From Flavobacteriales bacterium (lineage in GTDB: Bacteria; Bacteroidota; Bacteroidia; Flavobacteriales_D; Sanyastnellaceae), in assembly GCA_044354975.1 (NCBI GenBank), contig JBIKZA010000001.1:11094-75093 (forward strand): 64,000 nucleotides of DNA, read 5' to 3'. Both the position numbers and the translations under genes were made by a program. How positions within the stretch are numbered: the first letter of the stretch is position 1; each line of letters starts with the position of its first letter. Shown here piece by piece: positions 2,375-60,175 of the stretch. Below the pieces are notes generated by a model. The model was not told the DNA's origin. It saw nothing but the letters and a program-made list of their open reading frames with translations, and ran no database searches.

Positions 2375-3955
2375 ATGAAAAAATTAGTTACAGTATTACT
2401 GGGCGTGCTATCGGTTTGGAGCGTAAGTGCCATTGAAATTCCAAAGGACACTTTGCAAGACCGTCAGGTGGCGGGATTGAAGAAAGAGGAGATTGACGAA
2501 ATTGACAGGATGCTTGTGGCAAGTTACCTCAATCATTTTTGTTTTTCTGCGGATCCAGATATTCAAAACGCGTATGATTATCCAGCGGATCACATTCCCA
2601 ATTTTCCAGAAGAACTTACGCGCGAGCGCTTGCAGGTATTGGATAGAGAAAGTCCTTTTGATTTGGTATACAACGACAACGTACGCGACTTCATTGCGCT
2701 CTATTCAGTAAGAAGAAGAGATGTAACCGCAAAGGTTTTAGGTCTTTCTCAATTGTATTTTCCTTTGATTGAAGATGCGCTGGTGAAATATAATATTCCG
2801 CTTGAGTTGAAATATTTGGCTATTGTTGAGTCGGCTTTGAATCCAACTGCCATCTCTAGAGCAGGTGCTGCTGGACTTTGGCAGTTCATGCCTGGAACTG
2901 GAAAGATGTATGGGTTGGATATTACGAGTTATCAGGATGAGCGTTTCGATCCAATAAAGGAAACCGAAGCGGCTTGTAAATACTTGCGTTTCTTGTACAA
3001 CACCTTCGGCGATTGGAATTTAGCCTTAGCGGCCTACAACAGCGGTCCGGGTAACGTGAACAAAGCTATACGTCGTGCCAATGGCAAGAAAGATTTTTGG
3101 GCCATTAAGCAGTTCCTTCCGAAGGAAACACAAGGCTATGTTCCTGCATTTATTGCGGTGAATTACATTATGAACTATTCTACAGAACATAACATTTTTG
3201 CCAAGAAAGCGGCTATGTCTTATTTCGAAACAGACACGATTCATGTTACAGGAAGAGTAGATTTCGATGTTGTTTCCAAGAGCTTGAATCTTCCACTTGA
3301 GGAAATCACCTATTTGAACGGGACATACAAATTGAAAGAGATTCCAGATAATGGACAGGTCCATTACTTAATGTTACCCGTTGAGAAAATTGGCGACTTC
3401 TTGGCTCATGAAAAAGAGATTTATTTGGCCAGCGAGGTTAAAAAGCCAGAGCCAGAGCCTGTTGTGGCAGATACCGCATCAACCGAGGGTGATGCTGGAC
3501 AAACAACAAAGGTTATTTGGGAAGATCAATGGAAGACCCATAAAGTAAAGAAAGGCGAAACACTGAAAGGCGTTTCAACGAAATACGGAGTCTCCTCTTC
3601 TGACATTAAAAAATGGAATAAGCTGAAGTCTTCAGCATTGAAAATCGGTCAAAACTTAAAGGTTAAAGTGAAGGTGAAGAAGACTATTACGATTCCTAAA
3701 GTTACGGAGCCGGCCGATTCGACTTCAACTAATACACCGAAGGTAACACCTCCGGCAGAAGCTCCGAAACCAACGCCCCCGAAGCCCGCTACCCCAAAAG
3801 AGGAGTATGTTTATTACACAGTAAAATCAGGCGACAGTCTCTCGGGTATTGCTTCTAAAAACAAAGTTTCTGTTGATTCAATAGTGAAACTAAACAAGGG
3901 CTTAACACCGAATAAAATACAAATAGGACAGAAAATTAAAATCAAAAAGAAATGA
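2375..3955 (+). CDS. lytic transglycosylase with C-terminal LysM repeats (MltD-like)
   Basis: Signal peptide, SLT block ESALNPTAISRAGAAGLWQFMPGTG, a Pro/Thr-rich linker and two LysM modules. Confidence 0.85.
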   Translation: MKKLVTVLLGVLSVWSVSAIEIPKDTLQDRQVAGLKKEEIDEIDRMLVASYLNHFCFSADPDIQNAYDYPADHIPNFPEELTRERLQVLDRESPFDLVYNDNVRDFIALYSVRRRDVTAKVLGLSQLYFPLIEDALVKYNIPLELKYLAIVESALNPTAISRAGAAGLWQFMPGTGKMYGLDITSYQDERFDPIKETEAACKYLRFLYNTFGDWNLALAAYNSGPGNVNKAIRRANGKKDFWAIKQFLPKETQGYVPAFIAVNYIMNYSTEHNIFAKKAAMSYFETDTIHVTGRVDFDVVSKSLNLPLEEITYLNGTYKLKEIPDNGQVHYLMLPVEKIGDFLAHEKEIYLASEVKKPEPEPVVADTASTEGDAGQTTKVIWEDQWKTHKVKKGETLKGVSTKYGVSSSDIKKWNKLKSSALKIGQNLKVKVKVKKTITIPKVTEPADSTSTNTPKVTPPAEAPKPTPPKPATPKEEYVYYTVKSGDSLSGIASKNKVSVDSIVKLNKGLTPNKIQIGQKIKIKKK

Positions 3956-4398
3956 TAAAAGAAGGAGCCACCGTAGAGGTGAATTACGAACTTTTCATCG
4001 ATGATGAAAACGGAGAATTGGTAGAATCTACCCTGGAACAAGGACCAATGAGATTTACTTTCAAGGTTGATCCAATGATTGAAGGATTTGAAAAAGGATT
4101 AGCCGGATTGAATGTTGGCGATGAGTTTCGCATAAGCATTCCATGCGCAGAAGCTTATGGAGATGAGCAGGAAGAATATTACATGGAGTTTCCGAAAAGC
4201 GATTTCATGGAAGAAGATGGTGAGTTCGACGAAGATGTGTTTGCAGTGGGGGAAGTCATTCCAATGGAAACGCCAGAAGGACATCAAGTTCAAGGGGTTG
4301 TTGAAGAAGTTAAATTGAATACTGTGGTTATTGATTTTAACCATCCGTTAGCTGGAGAGAACTTGTTCTTTAAAGGACATGTGGTTTCAGTATCGTAA
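3952..4398 (+). CDS. FKBP-type peptidyl-prolyl cis-trans isomerase (SlyD/SlpA-like)
   Basis: 148 aa with an FKBP fold pattern and insert-in-flap region. ATGA overlap with the upstream gene. Confidence 0.8.
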   Translation: MIKEGATVEVNYELFIDDENGELVESTLEQGPMRFTFKVDPMIEGFEKGLAGLNVGDEFRISIPCAEAYGDEQEEYYMEFPKSDFMEEDGEFDEDVFAVGEVIPMETPEGHQVQGVVEEVKLNTVVIDFNHPLAGENLFFKGHVVSVS

Positions 4399-7724: not shown

Positions 7725-8630
7725 ATGTCAGCAGTAACTGATTTTCTTAGCAACCACTCAGACTTGGTGGCTGTAGCTACAGCAGCAGCTGCGGTTACAT
7801 TCCTTGGTTTTGAAGCGGGCTGGAATAGCATTATGGCCCCAGAGCGTAATGAGCAGGTATTCGAAAACAAAAACAAAGCATACGGAGCCTATAGAATTCG
7901 TTCTAGGTACGGCAGCGTTCTGGCTATAGCATTGTTTTCTGGTATTTTCTTGGTATCTGGTGCGCTAATTGTGCCAGTCATTTTAGCCAAAGGCGAAAAG
8001 AAAGAGAAAGAGGTGAAGGTGGAAATGAACACAGAAATGATTGCGCCGCCACCAACGGATCCAAACGAGCCGCCACCGCCACCGCCACCGCCGCCACCAC
8101 CGCCACCACCGCCACCAACGGTTCGTCAAATTCAATTTACATCGATTGTTATTGAAGAGAACGTAGAGACTCCTCCACCATCTCAAGATAAATTGAAAGA
8201 TGAAAAAATTGCAGACGAAACCACCGAAGGCGATGACGGTCCAATGGGCCCATCAGATGCAATAGCGGTTTACACTCCAGTCGATAACAAAAACGACAAA
8301 GACGCCCCTTTGCAATTCGTGCAGGAAATGCCGGCTTACCCGGGTGGGGAGAAGGCGTTGTATGAGTTTTTGTACAACAACATTGCATACCCTGAGCAAG
8401 AAAAATCTCAGAACATTGAAGGAACCGTTTTCGTAAACTTCGTTGTTGAGAAAGATGGAACACCGACTAACTTCACCGTAACACGTGGTGTAGAAGGTGG
8501 AAAAGGATTGGATAGAGAGGCATTGGGAGCTTGTAAGAAATTAGGCAAGTTCAACCCAGGAAAGCAAAACGGGGTTTCTCAACGTGTATTCTTGACCATT
8601 CCGATTAAATTTACTCTTGCAGATAATTAA
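7725..8630 (+). CDS. tonB: TonB-family energy transducer
   Basis: TM anchor, poly-Pro spacer (about 20 consecutive P) and a C-terminal TonB domain (YPGGEKALYEFL..EGTVFVNFVVEKDG). Confidence 0.8.
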   Translation: MSAVTDFLSNHSDLVAVATAAAAVTFLGFEAGWNSIMAPERNEQVFENKNKAYGAYRIRSRYGSVLAIALFSGIFLVSGALIVPVILAKGEKKEKEVKVEMNTEMIAPPPTDPNEPPPPPPPPPPPPPPPPTVRQIQFTSIVIEENVETPPPSQDKLKDEKIADETTEGDDGPMGPSDAIAVYTPVDNKNDKDAPLQFVQEMPAYPGGEKALYEFLYNNIAYPEQEKSQNIEGTVFVNFVVEKDGTPTNFTVTRGVEGGKGLDREALGACKKLGKFNPGKQNGVSQRVFLTIPIKFTLADN

Positions 8631-8650
8631 TCGATAAATACTTACTGAAA

Positions 8651-8677
8651 AGGGTTGGCTTGGGTCAACCCTTTTTT
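8651..8677 (+). terminator. rho-independent terminator after tonB
   Basis: Hairpin agggttg/caaccct followed by a T6 run. Confidence 0.7.
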
Positions 8678-8690
8678 ATTTTTGAATTGA

Positions 8691-9287
8691 ATGTTACCCT
8701 TTCACACAGATAGCAACGAAGCGGGTTTAGATGAAGCCGGAAGAGGCTGCCTCGCAGGCCCAGTGGTTGCTGCTGCAGTTATACTTCCTGAAGGATTTTC
8801 ACATCCTTGGTTGAACGATTCGAAGCAAATGAGCAAGAAGCACAGAGATGAGCTTCGTGTTATCATTGAAAAAGAAGCGATAGCATGGAACGTAGAGTTT
8901 GTTTCACCACAGGAAATAGATGAGCTGAATATCCTTCGCGCTTCAATAACAGCAATGCAACGTGCAACCATGAAATTGAAGAAAAAACCTTCTCATCTTT
9001 TAGTTGATGGAAATCGATTTTATGCCATGGAAGGGTATGCGCATACCTGTATGATTAAAGGCGATGCGCGCTTTATGAATATTGCCGCGGCTTCGGTTTT
9101 AGCGAAAACACATCGCGATGAATTCATGTTGAATCTGCACGAAAAACACCCGCATTATAAGTGGGATCGAAACATGGGATATCCAACGAAGGCACATCGT
9201 GCAGCAATTTCAGAATTCGGGGCGTGTGAGCATCACCGCATGACCTTCGCTCTTTTGCCAAGGTCGTTGCAAATAGAAGCGCTTTGA
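8691..9287 (+). CDS. rnhB: ribonuclease HII
   Basis: 198 aa with [17 protein letters not shown] catalytic motif. Confidence 0.9.
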
Positions 9288-9303: not shown

Positions 9304-10038
9304 ATGCAGTTAAGAGCTGAAAACATTCAAAAGATTTATGGAAAGCGCACGGTTGTAAAGGACGTGTCGTTTCACGTTGAGCAAGGCGAAATCGTTGGAT
9401 TACTCGGTCCGAATGGTGCGGGTAAAACGACGAGTTTTTACATGGTAACCGGATTAATTCAACCCAATCATGGAAAAGTGTTGCTCGATGATAGTGAGAT
9501 TACGCATATGCCTATGTTTCAACGCGCGAAGATGGGTGTTGGCTATTTGCCGCAAGAAGCTTCTATATTTCGCTCGTTATCCGTTGAAGACAACATTAAA
9601 GCTGTGCTTGAATTGACGGGGCTTTCAAAGAAAGAGCAAACGGAAAAACTAGATGCGTTATTGGAAGAATTTGGTCTTACCGAAAGAAGAAAATACATTG
9701 GCCACCACCTCAGTGGCGGTGAAAGAAGACGGACTGAAATTGCTCGGGCATTGGCAACGGACCCGAAATTTATTTTGTTAGACGAACCCTTTGCAGGCGT
9801 TGATCCCATTGCCGTTGAAGACATTCAGCGAATCGTTTGGAAACTGAAAGAACGCAACATTGGAATTCTCATTACCGACCACAATGTGCAAGAAACACTG
9901 ACCATTACGGATCGTGCTTACCTCTTATACGACGGAAATATTTTGAAGTCCGGAAGCGCGGAAGAGTTGGCTTCCGACGAGCAAGTGCGTCGTGTTTATT
10001 TGGGTCAAAACTTCGTTTTAAGAGCCCGAAAAGAATAA
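9304..10038 (+). CDS. lptB: LPS export ABC transporter ATP-binding protein
   Basis: 244 aa with Walker [10 protein letters not shown] and signature LSGGERRR; LptB-like length and C-terminus. Confidence 0.88.
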
Positions 10039-10040
10039 GC

Positions 10041-10058
10041 CCCCGAGAGTCTCGAGGG
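10041..10058. terminator. GC-rich hairpin between convergent lptB and sod (candidate bidirectional terminator)
   Basis: ccccgag-agt-ctcg(a)ggg stem, with T-rich sequence on both sides when read on either strand. Confidence 0.45.
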
Positions 10059-10080
10059 CCTTAGTATTTATTTGGAAGAA

Positions 10081-10680
10081 TTACTTCGCGCTGTTGTAGC
10101 GAGCTTCAACCACTTCCCAATTGATAACATTGAAAAAAGCTTGAATGTAATCTGGACGTCTGTTCTGATAGTTCAGGTAATACGCGTGTTCCCACACGTC
10201 TAAACCTAAAATTGGAAATCCAGAGCAGCCAACATTTGGCATCAATGGGTTGTCTTGGTTTGGAGTTGAGCAAACTTCAAGTTTTCCGTCTTTCACACAC
10301 AACCAAGCCCATCCTGAACCGAAGCGAGTCATTGCAGCCTTAACGAACAGTTCTTTGAATGCGTCGAATGATCCGAAAGCCTCGTTAATGGCGGCTTCCA
10401 TAGTTGGAGTTACTGTTCCGCCGTTTGGCGAAAGCAATTCCCAAAATAGGTTGTGATTGTAAAATCCACCACCGTTGTTTCTAACCGCAGGGGTGTCGAA
10501 ACCTTTCACCATAACTTCTTCGATAGAAAGATTTTCTAAATCGGTTCCAGCGATAGCGTTATTTAAGTTTGTTGTGTAAGCAGCATGGTGCTTACTGTGA
10601 TGTATTTCCATCGTGCGAGCATCGATGTTTGGCTCAAGGGCATCGTACGAATAAGGTAAATTTGGTAGTTCGAATGACAT
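10081..10680 (-). CDS. sodA: Fe/Mn superoxide dismutase
   Basis: 199 aa; [28 protein letters not shown] and DVWEHAYYL signatures. Confidence 0.95.
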
Positions 10681-10761
10681 AGTTATTTTTTTGCGAAATT
10701 AACCCAAAACAAACGCCACAAAAAAATTCTTCTCAATTCGTTAATATGCTTGATGCGCGCT

Positions 10762-10769
10762 TATCTTTG
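10762..10769 (+). promoter_or_regulatory. candidate Bacteroidota -7 promoter box (TATCTTTG) for mreB
   Basis: Exact TAnnTTTG match 50 nt upstream of the mreB ATG. Confidence 0.35.
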
Positions 10770-10818
10770 TAACTCTATCGAAGCGTTTTCAATTAACCTA
10801 TTTTAAAGAAGGAAAAGC

Positions 10819-11844
10819 ATGGGACTTTTTAGTTTCCTAACACAAGAAATTGCCATTGACTTGGGCACGGCAAACACAATCATTATCATGAACGATAAGG
10901 TTGTTGTAGATGAACCATCTATCATTGCTCGCGACCGAGTTTCTGGTAGAACCGTCGCTGTTGGTCGATTAGCGCAACAGATGCATGGTAAAACGCACGA
11001 GAATATCAAGACAATTCGTCCATTGAAAGACGGTGTAATCGCCGATTTTCACGCTGCAGAAGACATGATTAAAGGGTTAATCAAAATGATTAACAAAGGC
11101 GGAAAAATGTTTCAACCTTCTTTGAGAATGGTAATATGTATTCCATCTGGAATTACTGAAGTTGAAAAACGCGCGGTTAAGGATTCTGCAGAACACGCAG
11201 GTGCGAAAGAAGTTTATTTAATTCACGAGCCAATGGCCGCTGCAATTGGTATTGGTGTTGACGTTGAAGAGCCGATGGGAAATATGATTATTGACATCGG
11301 AGGTGGTACATCTGAAATTGCAGTTATTGCTTTGGGTGGAATTGTAACAGACAAAAACATTCGTGTAGCTGGAGATGAACTTACACAAGACATCGAAGAT
11401 TACATGCGTCGTCATCACAACATTTTAATTGGAGAGCGAACAGCAGAACAAATTAAAATTGAGGTTGGTGCTGCAATTGACGACCTAGAGGTTCCGCCAG
11501 CTGATTACAGCGTTCGCGGACGTGACTTGGTTACAGGTATTCCAAAAGAAATTATGGTTTCCTACAAAGAGATTGCTCATGCTTTAAACAAATCAATTTC
11601 TAAAATTGAAGAAGCAATCATGAGTTGTTTGGAAAATACACCGCCGGAATTATCAGCAGATATTTTCAAGACCGGTATTTATTTAGCCGGTGGTGGGGCA
11701 TTGCTCCGTGGATTAGATGTGCGGATCAATCGCAAAACGAAATTGCCTGTTCATGTTGCCGACGATCCGTTGCGTGCAGTAGCAAGAGGTACAGGAATTG
11801 CGTTGAAAAACATCAATCGCTTCCAATTCTTAATGCGCGAGTAA
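10819..11844 (+). CDS. mreB: rod shape-determining protein MreB
   Basis: 341 aa actin-like ATPase with DLGTANT and DIGGGTSEIA motifs. Confidence 0.95.
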   Translation: MGLFSFLTQEIAIDLGTANTIIIMNDKVVVDEPSIIARDRVSGRTVAVGRLAQQMHGKTHENIKTIRPLKDGVIADFHAAEDMIKGLIKMINKGGKMFQPSLRMVICIPSGITEVEKRAVKDSAEHAGAKEVYLIHEPMAAAIGIGVDVEEPMGNMIIDIGGGTSEIAVIALGGIVTDKNIRVAGDELTQDIEDYMRRHHNILIGERTAEQIKIEVGAAIDDLEVPPADYSVRGRDLVTGIPKEIMVSYKEIAHALNKSISKIEEAIMSCLENTPPELSADIFKTGIYLAGGGALLRGLDVRINRKTKLPVHVADDPLRAVARGTGIALKNINRFQFLMRE

Positions 11845-52998: not shown

Positions 52999-55416
52999 AT
53001 GAAAATCTCTTACAAACTTCTTTCACAATTGGTTCAACCCCTGCCGGCCCCAGAACTAGTGGCTGCAACCCTTACCAGAACCGGTCTTGAAGTGGAAGGC
53101 ATTGAAAGCGTAGAGAAAATTCCAGGCGGATTGAAAGGCGTGGTAGTCGGACATGTACTCGAATGCGAAAGACACCCCGATGCCGATCGCTTGTCAATTA
53201 CAAAAGTGAATCTCGGTGAAGGCGAGCTCGTTCAGATTGTTTGTGGTGCGCCGAATGTGGCTGTCGGACAAAAAGTGTTGGTTGCTACTGTTGGAACAAC
53301 TTTGTATCCCTCATCTGGCGAGTCTTTCACCATTAAAAAAAGTAAAATTCGCGGAGCAGAATCTATAGGCATGATCTGCGCGGAAGACGAACTAGGCCTC
53401 GGTGCTTCACACGACGGTATTCTTATTCTTCCAGCAGAAACAGTGGTTGGAATTCCGGCTGCTGTTGCGCTCAACATAGAAAGCGATGCATGCCTCGAAA
53501 TTGGTATTACTCCGAATAGAACAGATGCTCTTTCACATGCAGGTGTGGCGCGCGACTTCGCTGCTGCGTGGAATTTGGAAAACGAAAATAAGGTTGCGCT
53601 TTCAAGCACCACCGCCCCAGCGATTTCCTTCCAACCGAAAAATTGGAAATTAGATCTTCACGAAAACACAGAGTGCACGCGCTATGCGTTCGCGGTGATT
53701 AGCGGAATTGAAAATCAAGAGACTCCTACTTTCATCAAAGAAACATTGGCTGTTATCGGCGTGAAGAGCGTGAACCTGTGTGTAGACGTGACCAACTTCG
53801 TTCAACACGAATTGGGACAGCCGCTGCATGTGTTCAAGGCGAATGATTTTCCGAATCAGACCATCACGGTTCGAAATGCAAATACAGATGAAGCGTTAGA
53901 AACCCTCGACGGTGTTTCGCGCAAACTCACCAGCGAGGACGTGGTTATTTCCAACCAAAACGAAGTGCTTTGCATGGGTGGTGTTATGGGTGGAATAAAT
54001 GCGGGCGTGAGCGCTGAAGATTCGTTCGTTGTTTTTGAAAGTGCGTGCTTCAATGCGGTGCGTGTGCGCAAGAGCGCGAAGCGTCACCAGATTCATTCCG
54101 ATTCTTCGTTCCGCTTTGAACGCGGAGTTGCGGTTGATGGAATTCCGAATGCGTTAGCGCGTGCTTGGGAATTAATTCAAGCAGAAAATCCAAATGCGGT
54201 GCTGGTGGAAGCAGAAGATATTTATCCGGTTGCACTTCCGAAAACCGAAATTGAAGTCAAGGAAAGTTATTTGAAATCGCTTTTAGGAATTGACATTCCA
54301 AGCGAAATTGTTGTTTCCATATTGAACGATTTACAGTTCGAAGTTTCAACTGTTGAAGGTGGTTGGAAAGTGCTTGTGCCTTACAACCGTGTGGAAGTAA
54401 CGCGTCCGGCCGACGTGGCGGAAGAGGTGCTTCGCATCTACGGATACGACAAAGTTGAATTGCCTTCGCGCATGACGCTTTCTTTGAATACCAAAGGAAA
54501 AACAGAGAGTCTGCATTTCCGTTTGGCCGACCTGCTTGTTGCAGAGGGCTACACCGAAATCATGAACATGTCGTTAACGAAAAGCAAGTACGCTGAAGCG
54601 TTCGATGCGGCCTTGGGTGTGAACAGTGTTTCATTGTTGAATCCGTTGAGCAAAGATCTTTCGCACATGCGTAGTTCGTTGTTGTTCGGTGGAATGGAAA
54701 GCATTTCGTTGAATGAAAAACACAGAGCAACCGATCTTCGTTTGTTTGAAATTGGAAAGGAATACCGCAAGACGGAAAACGGATATAAAGAGAAGCGCAA
54801 ATTAGCGTTGTGGTTGTGTGGAAAGGAAAGCGCAGAATCATGGAAAAACCCTTCGAATGCTTCGTCATTAGCGCAATTGCGAGCGGTGGTTGAAAAAATT
54901 TTGAATGCATTGGGCATTCAGCAATGCGATATTGTTTCGCTTCAAGACTCTCCCATTTTCGCATACGGAATGGAGCTTTCTTCTCAGAAAAAATCGTTGG
55001 TGAAGTTGGGACGTGTGAATCCAGAAATTCAAGAAGCAACCGATGTTGAGCAAGAAGTATTCTATGCTGAATTCGATTTCGACACATTGGAAAAATTGAG
55101 AACGCAGCAGCGCAATGCCTTCCAACCGTTGAATAAATTTCCTTGGGTGCGTCGCGATTTATCGCTGTTGTTGAACAAGGAAACTACGTTCGAAAGTCTT
55201 CGTCAGTCTGCCTTAAAAAGCGAAAAGAAATTATTGAAGGAAGTGAATTTGTTCGATGTTTACGAAGGCAAGAATCTTCCAGAAGGCAAGAAATCTTACG
55301 CTCTGAAATTCATACTTCAAGACGCGCAGCAGACCTTAACTGATGAGGTTGTAGAGAAGAGCATGCAGCGCATTTTGCAAGGCTTGCAGACGGAGTGTTC
55401 GGCGGAGTTGAGGTAG
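52999..55416 (+). CDS. pheT: phenylalanine--tRNA ligase beta subunit
   Basis: Starts MKISYKLLSQLV; tRNA-binding, B3/4, B5 and FDX-ACB domain order. ORF-track start 52966 rejected. Confidence 0.95.
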   Translation: MKISYKLLSQLVQPLPAPELVAATLTRTGLEVEGIESVEKIPGGLKGVVVGHVLECERHPDADRLSITKVNLGEGELVQIVCGAPNVAVGQKVLVATVGTTLYPSSGESFTIKKSKIRGAESIGMICAEDELGLGASHDGILILPAETVVGIPAAVALNIESDACLEIGITPNRTDALSHAGVARDFAAAWNLENENKVALSSTTAPAISFQPKNWKLDLHENTECTRYAFAVISGIENQETPTFIKETLAVIGVKSVNLCVDVTNFVQHELGQPLHVFKANDFPNQTITVRNANTDEALETLDGVSRKLTSEDVVISNQNEVLCMGGVMGGINAGVSAEDSFVVFESACFNAVRVRKSAKRHQIHSDSSFRFERGVAVDGIPNALARAWELIQAENPNAVLVEAEDIYPVALPKTEIEVKESYLKSLLGIDIPSEIVVSILNDLQFEVSTVEGGWKVLVPYNRVEVTRPADVAEEVLRIYGYDKVELPSRMTLSLNTKGKTESLHFRLADLLVAEGYTEIMNMSLTKSKYAEAFDAALGVNSVSLLNPLSKDLSHMRSSLLFGGMESISLNEKHRATDLRLFEIGKEYRKTENGYKEKRKLALWLCGKESAESWKNPSNASSLAQLRAVVEKILNALGIQQCDIVSLQDSPIFAYGMELSSQKKSLVKLGRVNPEIQEATDVEQEVFYAEFDFDTLEKLRTQQRNAFQPLNKFPWVRRDLSLLLNKETTFESLRQSALKSEKKLLKEVNLFDVYEGKNLPEGKKSYALKFILQDAQQTLTDEVVEKSMQRILQGLQTECSAELR

Positions 55417-55421
55417 TCTAT

Positions 55422-56531
55422 TTAGTCCACCTTCCATTTCTTTACTAGTTCGTAGTTCACACTGCGTCCGCCTTCTTTGGTTTGTTGTAATATTCTTTTT
55501 TCTACGAGATCTTTAATATCGCGCAAGGCAGTGTCTGACGATGTTTTATTGATTTTCGCCCATTTCGAACTTTGTAATTTACCATCGAAATTGTCAAGCA
55601 GCATGTTCAATATTTTTCTTTGTCTTTCGTTAATTGAAGTCTTTTCGTGGTGTTTCCAGAATGCTGATTTTATGAGAATTTGTTGCATTGTCTTTTCTGT
55701 TGCAAGCATTGCGTTTTTAAGACAATGAAGAAACCAGTTGATCCATTCTGTTATGTCATTCTTGCTGTGTTGAACTTTTTGTAAAACAGTGTAATACATT
55801 TTTCGTTCTTCTAATATTTGGCTCGACATGCTGTAAAAGCGCTCTCCGCTGCCTTCAGCGCGTGCAAGTACCATATCGGTAAGAGCACGAGCCATGCGAC
55901 CGTTACCATCGTCGAACGGATGGATAATGATAAACCAAAAGTGTGCTATAGCTGCTTTTAGGACTGGATCAAGTGAATTGTCTTTATTAAACCAGGTGAT
56001 GAATTTCTTCATTTCTGCTTTTACGAACTTTGGCTTAACTGCTTCATAATGTACTTTCTCTTTTCCCATTGCACCTGAAACAATTTGCATTTCTCCAGTG
56101 CGATAACATCCAACTTCTATGGTATAAGGTCCGCTAAATCCGGTTGGGAAGAGCGCTGCATGCCAGCCGAACAAACGTTTTTCAGTTAATGGTGAATCAA
56201 ATCGTTGTGTAGCATCAAGCATCATCTCCACGATCCCTTCAATGTGACGACTGCTTTTAATTAGACCTGCTGAATTAATTCCTAATCGTCTGGCAATGGA
56301 AGAGCGCACTTGATCATAGTTGAGCAGTTCACCTTCTATTTCCGATGATTTAACAACATCGAGTGTTAATGCGTTAAGCGTTGCATCTTCTTTTGCCGAA
56401 AATCCAAGAGCATTCATCTGTCCGATGATTTTTCCTTGCCTCAATCGTACGTCTCCGAATATGGAATTAATCTCTGATTCACGCCAAGTGAAATCAGTCC
56501 AGTTTTTGTATTCGTAGATGTATTTTGCCAT
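55422..56531 (-). CDS. Fic-family protein (AMPylase-type, with in-cis inhibitory helix and C-terminal winged-helix region)
   Basis: Fic motif HPFDDGNGRMARAL; upstream SSEIEG matches the (S/T)xxxE(G/N) inhibition motif. Confidence 0.9.
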   Translation of the reverse strand: MAKYIYEYKNWTDFTWRESEINSIFGDVRLRQGKIIGQMNALGFSAKEDATLNALTLDVVKSSEIEGELLNYDQVRSSIARRLGINSAGLIKSSRHIEGIVEMMLDATQRFDSPLTEKRLFGWHAALFPTGFSGPYTIEVGCYRTGEMQIVSGAMGKEKVHYEAVKPKFVKAEMKKFITWFNKDNSLDPVLKAAIAHFWFIIIHPFDDGNGRMARALTDMVLARAEGSGERFYSMSSQILEERKMYYTVLQKVQHSKNDITEWINWFLHCLKNAMLATEKTMQQILIKSAFWKHHEKTSINERQRKILNMLLDNFDGKLQSSKWAKINKTSSDTALRDIKDLVEKRILQQTKEGGRSVNYELVKKWKVD

Positions 56532-56563
56532 AGCCTCTAAGTTATCTGCGGCAAATATAGGAA

Positions 56564-57187
56564 TTATTCACCGCATATTTGCGGCGAATAGAACTGTTTT
56601 TCACCGCAAGAGGTTTGAAGCGAATAGTATTGACGAGTGTAAAAAATCGAAGAAATTACTCTCGTTTCTGAAATAAGAGTAATATTCACCCGCGAAATAT
56701 CCAATGCCGTTGTCCCACTATTCCTGACCACTTTCCTGGGATTTTGGTCGTAATCTTTCTGTTGAATATTTACGACGAAGTCTCCTTTTTGGAATTGCGT
56801 TTGGAAAAAGACCATTCCCTTAGCGTTGTTAATGATAAGATTCATGGTGTCGCGCCGATCTCTAATTATCTGAAGTCTTGCATGGTTTTTAATGGTTGAC
56901 GTGCAATAATAATTATCCATTGACAAACGCCGAAAGCCAACACTTGACTCACTCAAATCATTTATTCGATAGTTTTTAATTCGAAGTTTCTCTATTCGGG
57001 GACTGTGATGGATGAACTTTTTATCAATCACAACAGTGTCACCCTCGGTTACTTCAATAATACTGAAATATAAATATTCATTGCCAACAGGTTGGGCCTG
57101 TGCGACAAAGGCGAGAAGTAAAAACAAGAATGAAATCAGGTATTTCAAGCCTTTATGGCGGAGTTGAGAGTTTATCTTTCTCTCCAT
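56564..57187 (-). CDS. hypothetical secreted protein
   Basis: Signal-peptide-like LISFLFLLLAFVAQAQ; A+T-rich; no family recognised. Confidence 0.45.
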   Translation of the reverse strand: MERKINSQLRHKGLKYLISFLFLLLAFVAQAQPVGNEYLYFSIIEVTEGDTVVIDKKFIHHSPRIEKLRIKNYRINDLSESSVGFRRLSMDNYYCTSTIKNHARLQIIRDRRDTMNLIINNAKGMVFFQTQFQKGDFVVNIQQKDYDQNPRKVVRNSGTTALDISRVNITLISETRVISSIFYTRQYYSLQTSCGEKQFYSPQICGE

Positions 57188-57432
57188 TTGTTTTCAAGGC
57201 TCATGAAATCTTCAAGATGGTAAACAGCATCTGAATAGTTGAACAAGATTGTTCGATCATCTACAATTGTGTATTTCTTTCTTTGGGCTACTGAAAGTTT
57301 TTGAAGCTCTGGAAAATATTTCAGAGGTACAATGATTATCCTACCATCTTGAAGTTTTAAAGAGATTTTTCCAATTAAATCGAAATTCAATTTTTCAATA
57401 CAGATCGTAGAGTTTTGAAGTGGCGTTCCCAT
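57172..57432 (-). CDS. DUF2442-like small protein
   Basis: 86 aa; pattern ..LKLQDGRIIIVPLKYFPELQKLSVAQRKKYTI..; 16-nt overlap with the downstream ORF. Confidence 0.5.
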   Translation of the reverse strand: MGTPLQNSTICIEKLNFDLIGKISLKLQDGRIIIVPLKYFPELQKLSVAQRKKYTIVDDRTILFNYSDAVYHLEDFMSLENKWRER

Positions 57433-57470
57433 ATTATTTGAATATTCAACTTGTCAAGTTTTATTTTGAG

Positions 57471-57600
57471 GTTGCTTATAACGTTTGGCAGCTACCCGAA
57501 GGTGGCGATTTCGGAGCACTTAACTGTCACCAAGCACAAACTTTGATGGAAGCACATAGCTTGATTTAAACCCTGAGCCGCCACTTTTGGGTAGGTGCTG
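57471..57600 (+). repeat. structured inverted-repeat element, copy A (candidate ncRNA or MITE)
   Basis: 15-bp stem tacccgaaggtggcg/cgccacttttgggta plus cagc/gctg and tcgg/ctga extensions. All pairs are canonical or G:U on the plus strand. Confidence 0.6.
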
Positions 57601-57661
57601 TTAGCGTTTCGTTTGCTCAATATGTGTTGATTATTAACTGTTATTCAATTCTCAGAAATCC

Positions 57662-58648
57662 CTAAAAGGATCGAACTGCGCGTACCCTTTTGGGACTATT
57701 TTTGTTGTAACTGGCGTTTGCGTATGTAATACCTGAACCGAAATCCACTCCCCATGAAGAATCATTATCATATTCTGAACTACTCCAATAACCACTAGGA
57801 TTTAATACCGTAGCCCCAGGAATTTGTGAAAAAGTCATTGAAACATTAAAATAATTATTCCAAAGCATATTTAATTCTTGTATAGATGGCAAGTACCAAT
57901 CATTCTGACCACTGCTAGATGAATTCAAACATAAAACTGCAGCGCTACTTGTATGTCCGATTTGCGAAACAATAGAATTCGAGTTGCCTAATCCATTCCA
58001 ATAACTTTGAGCAGATAAACCTATTAAGGTGTTGTCAACATTACTCCATCCAGACGCTCCACTTAAATCATTTAAATCAACCACAAGTCCGTGTTCTGCT
58101 CCTGAATTATCTTTCCATAAATGGAAAATAACTCCTCCGCCAAATACTTCACCTATATAATGTACGAAACCTCCTACACCTGCTGGTCCTTGTGGACCCG
58201 TTGCGCCCTGTGGACCTGCTGCACCCTGAGGTCCTGACATGGAACTTCCAGAGTTTGCTGCATATAGTGCATATGGCACACTAAGTAATTGACTTGTGCC
58301 AGTTATACTGTAGCTTGATCCTCCCGATGGGTCTGTTTCTGTTTTTAAAAAATAAGGTCCGTTAGCCCAGTCAATTGTTGCGAAGTTACCCGAGACAACA
58401 GTTCCTCCACCAATTTCAATACTTACTAGACCATTGGTATTGGTTGTAGAGGTTTGAGTTTCCACGAAAATAGCAGTGCCACTTGGTGAAGTTTGTAAAA
58501 TGCTAATTCGCATTCCAACGGTAGAGCTTGTTACTAGTGCATTTGATGTATTACGAATTACTGCTTGATAGCTCATTTTGTTTGGTACTTGAGCAAAAAC
58601 ATTTGCAGTCATTAAAATTGCTGCACAAATTGTAATTATTCGTTTCAT
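57662..58648 (-). CDS. secreted protein with short collagen-like G-x-y run and C-terminal DUF1566 (Lcl-type) domain
   Basis: Signal peptide, GPQGAAGPQGATGPQGPAG, and a C-terminal ..DWYLPSIQELNMLW.. pattern. Confidence 0.7.
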   Translation of the reverse strand: MKRIITICAAILMTANVFAQVPNKMSYQAVIRNTSNALVTSSTVGMRISILQTSPSGTAIFVETQTSTTNTNGLVSIEIGGGTVVSGNFATIDWANGPYFLKTETDPSGGSSYSITGTSQLLSVPYALYAANSGSSMSGPQGAAGPQGATGPQGPAGVGGFVHYIGEVFGGGVIFHLWKDNSGAEHGLVVDLNDLSGASGWSNVDNTLIGLSAQSYWNGLGNSNSIVSQIGHTSSAAVLCLNSSSSGQNDWYLPSIQELNMLWNNYFNVSMTFSQIPGATVLNPSGYWSSSEYDNDSSWGVDFGSGITYANASYNKNSPKRVRAVRSF

Positions 58649-58654
58649 GATTTC

Positions 58655-59143
58655 TTAATTTTTAATGATTTTAAATGATTGAACTTTCTTGTTTTCTTGG
58701 TTTACAACATTTATGAAGTAAGTAGCTGCCGGTAAACTCGCGGTGTTTATTTGAGTTTGCTGAGCTGTTACTGGACCACTGGTTAACAATTTACCTTGCA
58801 AATCATAAAGCTGAAAGGCTAACTTCTCGTTGTTGTAATCGCTTATTTGCAAGGTTAAATTCTCTGAAGTCGGGTTTGGAAAAGTAATGAGCGAAAAGTT
58901 CAATGTTGTTTCCTCTATGCCTACAGTGAAAATTTCGTAAGCATGTTGAACACCTTGGGCTTGACTACCCGAACTACCTGTGTTGGTGGAGTATACTACC
59001 TGTCCGATACTGTATGCAACGGTTCCTCCGCTGCCTGTGGCATTTCCTCCACTGGCGTTTGCTGATTCCTGGGCTTGTGCCAAGCCTGCCCATAGCAATC
59101 CTGTTAATAGAAGTAAAATGGGTCTTGATTTGTTTTTAGTCAT
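58655..59143 (-). CDS. small secreted protein with T9SS C-terminal sorting domain
   Basis: Signal peptide, Gly/Ser-rich segment and a Por tail FPNPTSENLTLQI.. Confidence 0.75.
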   Translation of the reverse strand: MTKNKSRPILLLLTGLLWAGLAQAQESANASGGNATGSGGTVAYSIGQVVYSTNTGSSGSQAQGVQHAYEIFTVGIEETTLNFSLITFPNPTSENLTLQISDYNNEKLAFQLYDLQGKLLTSGPVTAQQTQINTASLPAATYFINVVNQENKKVQSFKIIKN

Positions 59144-59208
59144 TTTTTGTTTTACTTGTTAATACTCGCTTTTACTTGTTTTCTGGCTCGTTTCGGTTTT
59201 TACAATGA

Positions 59209-59343
59209 ACGCTAACGTTTTGCAGCTACAAGAAGTTGGCGATTTCGGAGACGAAAACTGTCTGCCACCACAGAACTTGATACGAAGCACAAAACTTCAT
59301 TTAACCACTGAACCGCCAATTTCTTGTAGGTGCTGTTATGTGT
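59209..59343 (+). repeat. structured inverted-repeat element, copy B
   Basis: Stem tacaagaagttggcg/cgccaatttcttgta. Shares gcagctac, ggcgatttcggag, aactgtc, gaagcaca, atttaa and gtaggtgctgtta blocks with copy A. Confidence 0.6.
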
Positions 59344-59360
59344 AGCCTTTCTTTGGTCGG

Positions 59361-59939
59361 CTAGTAAATACATACTTGTCCTTGTCCAATTGGTAAAACA
59401 GATGCAATAACGTCTTCCCTAACTTTGTTGTCGTAAAGTTTTTCAATTGCCCAGCCAACTAAGTCAACTGCTGCCAAACAACCTGCTGCTGTCCCAACAT
59501 TACCACGTGTTACCAAATGTTTGTCTTCAAGGACGTCAACGCCATAATTTTTCAAAGCTTCAAAGGCAGTCGGATAAGTTGTTGCGGAAAGTCCAGTTAG
59601 ATGTCCAAGTGCTGCAATTATTAAAGCACCAGAACACATTGAACAAATTATTTGTCGGCTTGGGTCAAGGTTAAAGCGTTTTAAATAAAGTTCGTCCTTG
59701 ATAACGTTTCTTGTCCCAGGTCCGCTACCAAAAAATACCAGGTCCGAATCATTGCATTCTTCAATAAGTCCGTGAGTTTTTAGGTCAAGCCCACATACAG
59801 ATTTATGGGTCGTTTCTGTCCCAACAATTTTTACTTGAAATTCTTTGTCACGAAATTTAACTCGGTTAAGTAAGTCCCAAGCTAAAAAAATATCAATGTC
59901 CGTGAACTTGTCAAATGCTACTATTACTGCTTTTTTCAT
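59361..59939 (-). CDS. DJ-1/PfpI family protein
   Basis: 192 aa; nucleophile-elbow Cys context IICSMCSGALIIA. Confidence 0.85.
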   Translation of the reverse strand: MKKAVIVAFDKFTDIDIFLAWDLLNRVKFRDKEFQVKIVGTETTHKSVCGLDLKTHGLIEECNDSDLVFFGSGPGTRNVIKDELYLKRFNLDPSRQIICSMCSGALIIAALGHLTGLSATTYPTAFEALKNYGVDVLEDKHLVTRGNVGTAAGCLAAVDLVGWAIEKLYDNKVREDVIASVLPIGQGQVCIY

Positions 59940-59973
59940 GTTATAATTGTCTGTTTTGTTGTCGTCATAAGGT

Positions 59974-60057
59974 TACACATAACTAGCTTATACGCGCTAC
60001 AAACGTGCCCAATACATGTCATTGTAGCGCGATAGGCGCAGGTTTGTTGCGGTTAGC
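59974..60057 (-). repeat. possible shortened, inverted relative of elements A/B
   Basis: tacacataac(t)agc matches the reverse complement of the B 3' end. ctacaa/ttgtagc and gttagc blocks are retained. 10-bp stem cgcgctacaa/ttgtagcgcg. Confidence 0.35.
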
Positions 60058-60121
60058 TAAAGGTAATAGTTTTATTTACAAATCGTCAAATGGTGACCGG
60101 ACTTGTCTAATTTGTATTGCC

Positions 60122-60175
60122 ATGCAACTCATTTTGCAAGGCTTGCAGAGTGAGTGTTCGGCGGAGTTACGCTAA
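60122..60175 (+). pseudogene. orphan copy of the last 17 codons plus stop of pheT
   Basis: Encodes MQLILQGLQSECSAELR*, against MQRILQGLQTECSAELR* at the end of the intact pheT. Confidence 0.75.

Follow-up and report, generated by a model that had tools for sequence, protein, structure and literature searches.

The closest described counterparts of the DNA element treated here are the attC recombination sites of integrons, whose integrases carry an IntI insertion which contacts extrahelical bases. Two copies of the element, A and B, lie in a 64,000-nucleotide stretch of a Flavobacteriales bacterium (contig JBIKZA010000001.1 of assembly GCA_044354975.1, positions 11,094 to 75,093), which we refer to as the window and in which an earlier note, made from the letters alone, had described them as a candidate structured RNA or miniature inverted-repeat transposable element (MITE). 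In a survey with IntegronFinder 2.0, Bacteroidetes were found with In0 elements only, plus one complete integron in Salinibacter (PMC9024848), and in a classification of tyrosine recombinases the insertion was noted as incompletely conserved within the integron-like subgroup (PMC8138268). In Riemerella, a 2026 paper reported that aph(3')-IVb enters the chromosome without homology after natural transformation (PMC13148043); the gene moves with a 27-bp 5' flank and a 140-bp stem-loop 3' flank, which its authors described as an attC-like structure with an unresolved mechanism (PMC13148043). In Chryseobacterium and relatives, genes named ‘XerD’ have been found repeatedly beside catB, aadS and tet(X) (PMC11194056).

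Our analysis indicates that A and B are very probably attC-like sites of an integron-like gene-cassette system which occurs across Bacteroidota and has a non-classical recombinase. The case is built on site anatomy, covariation, strand asymmetry, array polarity, junction complementarity, recombinase linkage and cassette-exact homology, all of them read from sequence, and from these we infer that the sites fold as single strands, which enzyme is the catalyst and at which bond the DNA is cut. No description of a Bacteroidota hairpin-cassette system was present in the literature searched by full text, many subscription papers being outside its coverage.

In the system which we propose, a cassette would consist of a single gene or a few co-oriented ones with one site behind them, and its first 9–15 nt (TTRnnnnnn...) would be complementary to the nucleotides preceding the YAAC of that site. 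In the circular cassette the joined ends would complete an outer ‘R box’ (nnnnnnYAAC / GTTRnnnnnn). Going inwards, the site would be made up of the R box, an unpaired GKTTT bulge, an inner box (GCAGC / GCTG in the subfamily of the window), the covarying stem and a loop of variable length. The gene-antisense strand would fold as single-stranded DNA, and this fold would be recognised by an Xer/XerA/IntI-like tyrosine recombinase which is co-oriented with the cassettes, with strand exchange at G|TT. Cassettes would be inserted and excised at a short hairpin site ~100 nt past the recombinase gene.

Hairpin sites and their family

Copies A and B were found to be 78% identical over 126 nt (blastn, E = 2e−23), at the places given for the two ~130-nt elements in the earlier note (Table 1), and every sequence block listed there as shared was found in both. 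No third copy of the element was present within the window. Site A opens with TAAC and a GTTTG bulge; its 5' arm GCAGCTACCCGAAGGTGGCG and 3' arm CGCCACTTTTGGGTAGGTGCTG are separated by a loop of ~75 nt, and TTA comes after the 3' arm. A and B each fold with a closing stem of 16 bp and an outer stem of 3–4 bp, and their stems differ exactly as had been described: C:G becomes A:T twice, G:C becomes T:A once and G:T becomes G:C once. These compensatory differences are the differences between two common subfamilies of the element.

The covarying stem holds well beyond this one pair of copies. In an alignment of 33 diverse copies (alignment A2), the RNAalifold consensus contained 21 pairs, 16 of them with double-sided changes. 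Standard pairs filled 94.8% of the cells, as compared with 68.6% after shuffling (0/500 shuffles as high) and 38.5–51.6% when the partners were slid, and the covariation score was 0.634, as compared with 0.18 and 0.09–0.16 respectively. Unpaired features were also constant, namely a one-sided 5-nt GKTTT bulge which separates the outer TAAC/GTTA box from the inner one, a 2 × 2 internal loop and a further mismatch higher in the stem. The second helix which had been proposed within the element (ttcgg/ctga) found no support in the wider comparison, being paired in 56.4% of cases across the family and in 54.5% after shuffling, with 128 of 500 shuffles at or above the observed value.

Searching for further copies was productive, and the element was found in metagenomes and genomes across Bacteroidota. 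At least 120 loci in metagenome contigs matched the exact pattern GCAGCTACN{7,9}GGCGATTTCGGAG and at least 120 loci in species-representative genomes matched the exact pattern ACGKTTTGCAGCTACMMGAAG. The hosts among the matches listed included members of Flavobacteriales (Flavobacterium, Chryseobacterium, Bergeyella and Crocinitomicaceae), Cytophagales (Algoriphagus and Arundinibacter), Chitinophagales, Bacteroidales and Sphingobacteriales (Pedobacter glucosidilyticus DSM 23534). More diverged copies were recovered with an nhmmer profile of the 116-nt core; at least 8 stem sequences occur between constant ends (TAACGKTTT ... CTGTTA). Sites range from ~60 to 145 nt in total length, and both the sequence and the length of the loop vary between subfamilies.

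The + strand, on which the sites are described here, folds more stably in 157/204 unique copies with RNA parameters and in 191/204 with DNA parameters, which should be read as a trend and not as an independent count because the 204 copies are related. For A and B, the RNA fold z-scores were −4.2 and −4.9 on the + strand and −2.0 and −3.8 on the − strand. In its position, the + strand matches the recombinogenic ‘bottom’ strand of attC. Both this asymmetry and the compensatory differences in the stem would be expected of a hairpin recombination site which acts as single-stranded DNA, and such a site accounts for the structure better than an RNA gene or a MITE does.

A stem which covaries this strongly, with G:U pairs on the + strand which would be C:A on the other, and which folds better on the + strand, might be expected of a structured non-coding RNA lying antisense to the cassette genes and working as a trans-acting or antisense regulator. 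The part of that suggestion which concerns the strand stands, since the + strand does fold better and is antisense to the genes, but the identification as an RNA gene fits the wider evidence poorly. Rfam 15 gave nothing overlapping A or B at the gathering score or at E up to 10. No promoter- or terminator-like site was found beside A or B by a scan whose coverage does not extend to Bacteroidota promoters. Furthermore, conservation is limited to the geometry of the stem and to the ends, covariation is absent from the internal ttcgg/ctga helix, and an RNA would leave unexplained both the complementarity of flanks between neighbouring copies and the constant place beside a recombinase which are described below. 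We consider a structured RNA to be very unlikely. A weak Rfam match to folP (E = 0.43) fell inside a coding region and was attributed to chance.

The sites lie between co-oriented genes with which they would be co-transcribed, and the − strand also beats its shuffles, as would suit a gene-sense element which acts in cis in the mRNA of the cassette (a leader, a stabiliser or an intercistronic terminator, for example) and folds as − strand RNA. The strand asymmetry is the opposite of the one which such an element calls for, however, and on the − strand the stem is not followed by a U-tract and has no terminator-like match; junction complementarity and recombinase linkage would again be left unexplained. 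A cis effect on mRNA could be a secondary effect of the sites, and as an account of the sites themselves it seems to us highly improbable.

Three other candidates were rejected. The −7 promoter motif of Bacteroidota is TAnnTTTG, and no conserved match to it lies inside the element, which together with the arrays and the logic of the junctions opposes an invertible promoter with inverted repeats. A diversity-generating retroelement with a pair of template and variable repeats was rejected on the grounds that the differences between A and B are not adenine-specific. A 46-aa open reading frame (ORF) on the + strand, 59205–59345 (MNANVLQLQEVGDFGDENCLPPQNLIRSTKLHLTTEPPISCRCCYV), spans copy B and was judged to be a by-product of the repeat: a 1-nt deletion shifts the frame in copy A, where it ends prematurely, other copies are frameshifted by 1-nt indels and carry nested insertions, and the ‘start codon’ which seemed to lie at a constant upstream distance in many loci is part of a semi-conserved cassette arm.

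The copies are arranged in strongly polar arrays. All copies had a single orientation in 83 of the 84 multi-copy loci (the remaining one was mixed), the spacing between array copies of the same orientation was usually 0.4–3 kb, and in 172/176 cassettes, which had a median length of 1128 bp, the longest ORF was antisense to the + orientation of the element. This polarity bears on the suggestion that the element is a MITE, or a selfish palindromic repeat of the repetitive extragenic palindromic (REP) type which transposes into intergenic DNA. Such an element would be a multi-copy hairpin, and this one is highly conserved across hosts and is often the point at which assemblies break. Its orientation is, however, far from random, and the flanks of the copies pair with those of the neighbouring copy. 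When the flanks were checked for target-site duplications, the identity of direct repeats was 2.03/8 positions, which is the chance level, and the combination of terminal inverted repeats, target-site duplications and insertion in either orientation which marks a MITE was not found. Both halves of the outer stem are carried by the segment between copies, homology between genomes stops at the boundaries of the cassette and not at those of the element, and no transposase or REP-associated tyrosine transposase (RAYT)-type gene is recurrently linked, the recurrent neighbour being a tyrosine recombinase. We give this explanation hardly any credence.

Some copies depart from the common form. Hybrid sites, whose 5' and 3' arms come from different stem subfamilies and whose stem cannot form, were found at L010 ~3145–3270, L053 5446–5550, L058 7863–7963 and L084 ~239–370, which suggests recombination within the conserved loop or between sites. 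Small GC-rich palindromes (for example CCCGATAGCTATCGGGA or CCCGCCTTTGCGGGA) are inserted in the loops of some copies (L050 ~1993–2120, L053 585–697, L126 ~4105–4290 and L055 8735–8877), as if a second tiny hairpin element nests in the loops of the sites. Reverse transcriptases of group II introns were also found within arrays (L248 14422–15612 and 20101–21044, L254 15765–17081, L066, L112 and L117); where the orientation was checked, the cassette genes are on the other strand. A match to group-II D1-D4 RNA lies at L248 15820–16012 (−).

Junctions of the proposed cassettes and the linked recombinase

We found exact reverse complementarity between the 9–10 nt past GTT in one copy and the 9–10 nt ahead of AAC in the copy after it. 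Exact complementarity of at least 9 nt, anchored at GTT/AAC, between the right flank of a copy and the left flank of the next was present in 65/101 adjacent pairs, as compared with 7/250 for the right and left flanks of the same copy and 1.3% for random pairs from different loci. The complementarity usually resumes past a mismatch of 1–2 nt, for example GTTACCTGC-TG-GCGT versus ACGC-TT-GCAGGTAAC. The fourth base also covaries, GTTA or GTTG with the TAAC or CAAC of the next copy, which places the exchange point at or before G|TT. The window obeys this rule twice, between the flank after A and that before B, and between the flank after B and positions 59969–59983. We read this complementarity as the signature of circularisable integron cassettes with a predicted crossover at G|TT. 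Both halves of the outer stem lie in the DNA between two sites, and the stem is complete only in the circular cassette.

Three lines agree on a putative cassette which consists of an arm, one or more genes and a downstream site, as in integrons. The first cassette, at the junction next to the recombinase, possesses both arms and a 3' site of its own, and no site core lies upstream of it. A cassette shared by two genomes (L144 and L240) is 85% identical over query positions 198–857, where the predicted boundaries are 201–855; the homology takes in the 3' site, and differences are found in the upstream site and in the DNA past G|TT. In the window, the DJ-1 gene together with site B is 99% identical to metagenome locus L027, where the neighbouring arm differs from that of the window exactly at the variable positions.

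The largest cluster of ORFs in the metagenome loci was a tyrosine recombinase of ~280–380 aa. It scored 230 bits against NF040815 (‘site-specific tyrosine recombinase/integron integrase’, cut-off 220) and 195–211 bits against the integron-integrase model TIGR02249, which is below the cut-off of 265 and was matched in two separate parts. The closest solved structures were those of archaeal XerA (4a8e and 5hxy). The recombinase aligned to VchIntIA (2a3v) in two blocks (query 104–280 to 9–185 and 298–371 to 245–318) and has 17 aa where VchIntIA has a segment of 59 aa, so the IntI-specific insertion is absent; at its N terminus it carries an extra domain of ~100 aa. At least 7921 homologues were found at E up to 1e−60, named only ‘XerD’ or ‘site-specific integrase’.

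The recombinase occupies a constant place. In all 17 of the recombinase-bearing loci examined, an exact partner of the right arm of the last copy was found, and in 12/17 this partner lay 27–182 nt (typically ~100) from the recombinase stop, followed by a short hairpin with TATA-rich shoulders. We also looked at four loci from the recombinase side, from Flavobacterium daejeonense (L248), Sphingobacterium kyonggiense (L250), a metagenome (L251) and Flavobacterium sp. TSSA_36 (L252), of which L250 and L251 encode the same recombinase protein. In 4/4 a hairpin and then ...TATATAC(A/T)A|GTTR was present ~100 nt past the recombinase stop, and in 3/4 an exact 10-nt partner was present 0.6–2.6 kb downstream. 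The array of TSSA_36 contains at least 10 successive cassettes, with exact partners for 9, and its sites of ~120 nt belong to another sequence family with the same ends. A Chryseobacterium plasmid (L254) has the same hairpin and a GTTG junction downstream of its recombinase, and carries a copy of the element of the window elsewhere on the plasmid.

As a side observation, in L250 and L251 the recombinase (10001–11044 and 8011–9054 respectively) and the first cassettes are inside a CTnDOT-like conjugative region (RteC, topoisomerase and DUF3945), and the genes from the recombinase to the next RteC block include HxlR, NmrA, ArsP and a TetR-family regulator. These two loci would represent a mobile form of the arrays found on chromosomes.

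The linked enzyme is Xer-like, with the two XerA proteins as its nearest structures, and many arrays, including that of the window, are without an intact linked recombinase. This would fit real cassette sites which are recombined by the housekeeping Xer proteins or by another enzyme, as are the pdif modules of Acinetobacter, with the linked recombinase having some other role. Against such a division of labour, the first junction lies ~100 nt past the stop of the linked recombinase and behind a dedicated hairpin in diverse hosts, and the sites are hairpins of ~60–145 nt in one orientation, not 28-bp dif-like sites which alternate. We regard a housekeeping or other enzyme as very unlikely, and the linked recombinase remains the favoured candidate.

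Several points weigh against a cassette system served by this recombinase. The recombinase is assigned as the putative catalyst by linkage only, its homologues were found in ~27 of ~240 loci (~11% of the element-centred loci) and the window is without a functional one. Its lack of the IntI insertion means that recognition of the sites must differ from that in classical integrons. A simple exchange at G|TT would not be expected to give the hybrid sites, whose arms do not match. Homology which is exact to the cassette comes from one cassette family and the DJ-1 case, and the junction signature is absent from 36 of the 101 ‘adjacent’ pairs. We attribute the latter to sites which the profile misses, because sites of ~60 nt and other sequence families exist, although not every case was resolved. 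Finally, the transformation result in Riemerella would be an independent experiment in favour of the proposed system, if its 140-bp element belongs to this family.

The island in the window

The order of genes around the two sites is Fic/DUF4172, a 207-aa ORF, DUF2442, site A, Lcl_C, a type IX secretion system (T9SS) sorting-domain gene, site B, DJ-1/PfpI and dxr, with all of the genes on the − strand. From the features in Table 1, we interpret the island as a decayed platform which retains a recombinase remnant, the proximal site, two cassettes and a distal segment.

Table 1 Features of the island, with putative assignments; positions are those of the window.
Feature	Position	Strand	Content or remark
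48-nt direct repeat, copy 1	55362-55409	+	3' end of pheT; left boundary of the island
Segment distal to the last site	55417-57481	-	DUF2442, 207-aa gene, Fic/DUF4172
Fic/DUF4172 gene	55422-56531	-
207-aa gene	56564-57187	-
DUF2442 gene	57172-57432	-
Site A, attC-like recombination site	57479-57603	+	Better-folding strand; antisense to the cassette genes
Cassette 2 (1734 bp)	57482-59215	-	162-aa T9SS-sorting-domain gene, 328-aa Lcl_C-domain gene, site A
Lcl_C-domain gene, 328 aa	57662-58648	-
T9SS-sorting-domain gene, 162 aa	58655-59143	-
Site B, attC-like site	59213-59338	+	Commonest subfamily, ACAAGAAGTTGGCG ... CGCCAATTTCTTGT
Cassette 1 (767 bp)	59216-59982	-	DJ-1/PfpI gene (59361-59939) and site B
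AttI-like, recombinase-proximal hairpin site	59983-60075	-
Tyrosine recombinase, 3' remnant	60076-60114	-	Frame IQIRQVRSPFDDL followed by the stop (60078-60076); remaining gene gone
48-nt direct repeat, copy 2	60121-60168	+	Flanked by the dxr stop codon and the recombinase remnant; bounds the island on the right

Read on the − strand, cassette 2 begins TTAGCGTTC and terminates at the G opposite C57482, and its two ends pair over 9 nt, GTTAGCGTT (57600–57608) with AACGCTAAC (59208–59216). The ends of cassette 1 are also complementary, GTTATGTGTAGCCTT (59335–59349) to AAGGTTACACATAAC (59969–59983). Upstream of cassette 1 is the proximal hairpin, which on the − strand reads ...CGCAACAAACCTGCGCC-TAT-CGCGCTACAA-loop-TTGTAGCGCG-TATAAGCTA|GTTATGTG and has the same architecture as the sites which lie downstream of intact recombinase genes at other loci. 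The first cassette junction (the G opposite 59983) is 92 nt downstream of the stop of the recombinase remnant, the same distance as at intact loci. A and B had been said to sit in the only two sizeable gaps of the island, which needs correcting, as a third gap (59940–60120) has this different, shorter hairpin site.

The remnant comprises the last 11–13 codons, ending ..RSPFDDL and stop, and intact homologues end ..LQQIRSPFDDL or ..IQQIKSPFDDL and stop. Other than this 3' remnant, no recombinase ORF was found in the window at E below 1e−10. At the other end of the island, the proximal arm of the distal segment, GTTATAAGCAACC, is without a partner in the whole of the window, which means that this segment is not a complete cassette. 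The two copies of the 48-nt repeat are 92% identical, each ends in GAGTT and together they bracket an island of 4.7 kb; copy 2 directly abuts the recombinase remnant.

Two adjacent 33-nt direct repeats which are 76% identical (TATCTGCGGCAAATATAGGAATTATTCACCGCA and TATTTGCGGCGAATAGAACTGTTTTTCACCGCA, 56543–56608) lie partly in the gap which separates the start of the Fic gene from the 207-aa ORF and partly in the 3' end of that ORF. Metagenome loci L001, L002, L005 and L006 are from near-identical strains of the organism of the window, and several of these assemblies break in or beside site B, which fits an element that is multi-copy in that genome, outside the 64-kb window.

Resistance genes and comparison with known systems

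Published primers around the Riemerella catB genes G148_1769 and G148_1772 (PMC5331189), TTTGCGAAGAAGCGGGCTAA and TACTTAACCCGCCATTTTGCCA, are close to the stem arms of the family; the sequence with which they were compared is ...GCACTTAACCCGCCATTTTGCCAAACTGCTGTTA in L074. This hints that Riemerella catB may also be a cassette.

On the Acinetobacter baumannii plasmid p34AB (NZ_MK134375.1, 5004–7140; L253), tet(X3) is directly downstream of a truncated homologue of the recombinase, which has 54% identity and is the ‘tpnF’ of the tet(X) literature; the truncated recombinase is found on ~50 Acinetobacter plasmids. The recombinase gene is followed by a hairpin, TATACGCCATTTGGCGTATA-GCCACTT|GTTATGTGCC, and the ATG of tet(X3) is 8 nt later. 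Past the tet(X3) stop are GGCTACTAAC-A-AGCAG... and a loop motif like that of the element in the window (nhmmer E = 0.03), after which the site is cut off. The two arms at this locus are not complementary. A link between the tet(X3) unit and the Bacteroidota cassette platform is suggestive only.

Taking these observations together, we lean on balance towards a phylum-wide integron analogue in Bacteroidota, with an Xer/XerA-like recombinase which lacks the IntI insertion and with folded hairpin sites, in three settings: sedentary chromosomal arrays, conjugative elements and plasmids, and decayed arrays. It would be the homology-free route for resistance genes in Flavobacteriales and the original context of tet(X3), which would later have been moved by ISCR2 into Acinetobacter with the recombinase in truncated form (‘tpnF’) beside it.

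The near-absence of integrons in surveys of Bacteroidetes (PMC9024848) would be accounted for by a parallel system which is abundant and uses another recombinase. Such a system would show that the capture of cassettes at hairpin sites arose, or diversified, outside the IntI clade, and would give a testable mechanism for the capture of resistance genes in Riemerella (PMC13148043) and beside the ‘XerD’ genes of Chryseobacterium (PMC11194056), as well as tying the tpnF-tet(X3) unit of Acinetobacter plasmids to a cassette platform of Bacteroidota. The conserved ends (YAAC-GKTTT ... TGTTR with complementary arms) are usable for cassette mining and for cassette-targeted polymerase chain reaction in this phylum, which dominates communities of the gut, of freshwater and of marine particles.

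Of the known systems which we compared, MITEs, REPs and bacterial interspersed mosaic elements share with these sites that they are short, multi-copy, intergenic and hairpin-forming. Unlike them, the sites have no target-site duplication, a constant polarity, arms which pair between neighbours and no linked transposase. The pdif modules, the integrative mobile elements exploiting Xer (IMEX) and the attP of the CTX phage are similar in having a tyrosine recombinase of the Xer type and small gene modules bounded by sites, with a folded single strand in the case of the CTX phage. A pdif site is, in contrast, a 28-bp duplex which alternates in orientation and is served by the host XerC/XerD, whereas the sites described here are long hairpins in a single orientation, in an array with a dedicated linked recombinase; alternating 28-bp sites of the form XerC-spacer-XerD were not found.

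The likeness to integrons is much more extensive. As in attC sites and the Vibrio cholerae repeat (VCR) arrays of Vibrio, the sites are imperfect hairpins of ~60–145 nt of which only the ..AAC and GTT.. ends are conserved, and they have the unpaired spacer, internal mismatches and variable centre of attC, with the ORF-antisense strand folding better. As in integron cassettes, there is one 3' site for each cassette, sites and ORFs are all co-oriented, and the inverse core of each site is complementary to the start of the cassette to which it belongs, which points to crossover at G|TT. The near-identical sites within one chromosomal array (L252) are like those of sedentary chromosomal integrons, the array begins beside a tyrosine recombinase as in integrons, and the intron reverse transcriptases in the arrays, on the opposite strand, recall the group IIC-attC introns of classical integrons. 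Of the features which define a classical integron, we found attC-type anatomy, the G|TT boundary and a co-oriented array beside a recombinase and an attI-like site, and did not find the IntI-specific domain.

The differences from integrons concern both the enzyme and the sites. The Bacteroidota recombinase is without the IntI insertion and has the extra N-terminal domain, and it is co-oriented with and upstream of the cassettes, whereas the integrase of integrons is divergent. The recombinase-proximal site of the Bacteroidota system is itself a hairpin, unlike that of integrons, the outer paired box is 9–15 bp as compared with 7, and the spacer is a one-sided 5-nt bulge.

The array in the window most resembles the clusters of attC sites that have no integron integrase (CALIN), in that it lacks a functional recombinase and has two cassettes and at least two clustered sites (1.7 kb separate A from B). 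It differs from CALIN in that the sites belong to the Bacteroidota family and that a recombinase remnant and the proximal site are still there. By analogy, the array can be placed among CALIN elements, with a new family of sites standing in for attC.

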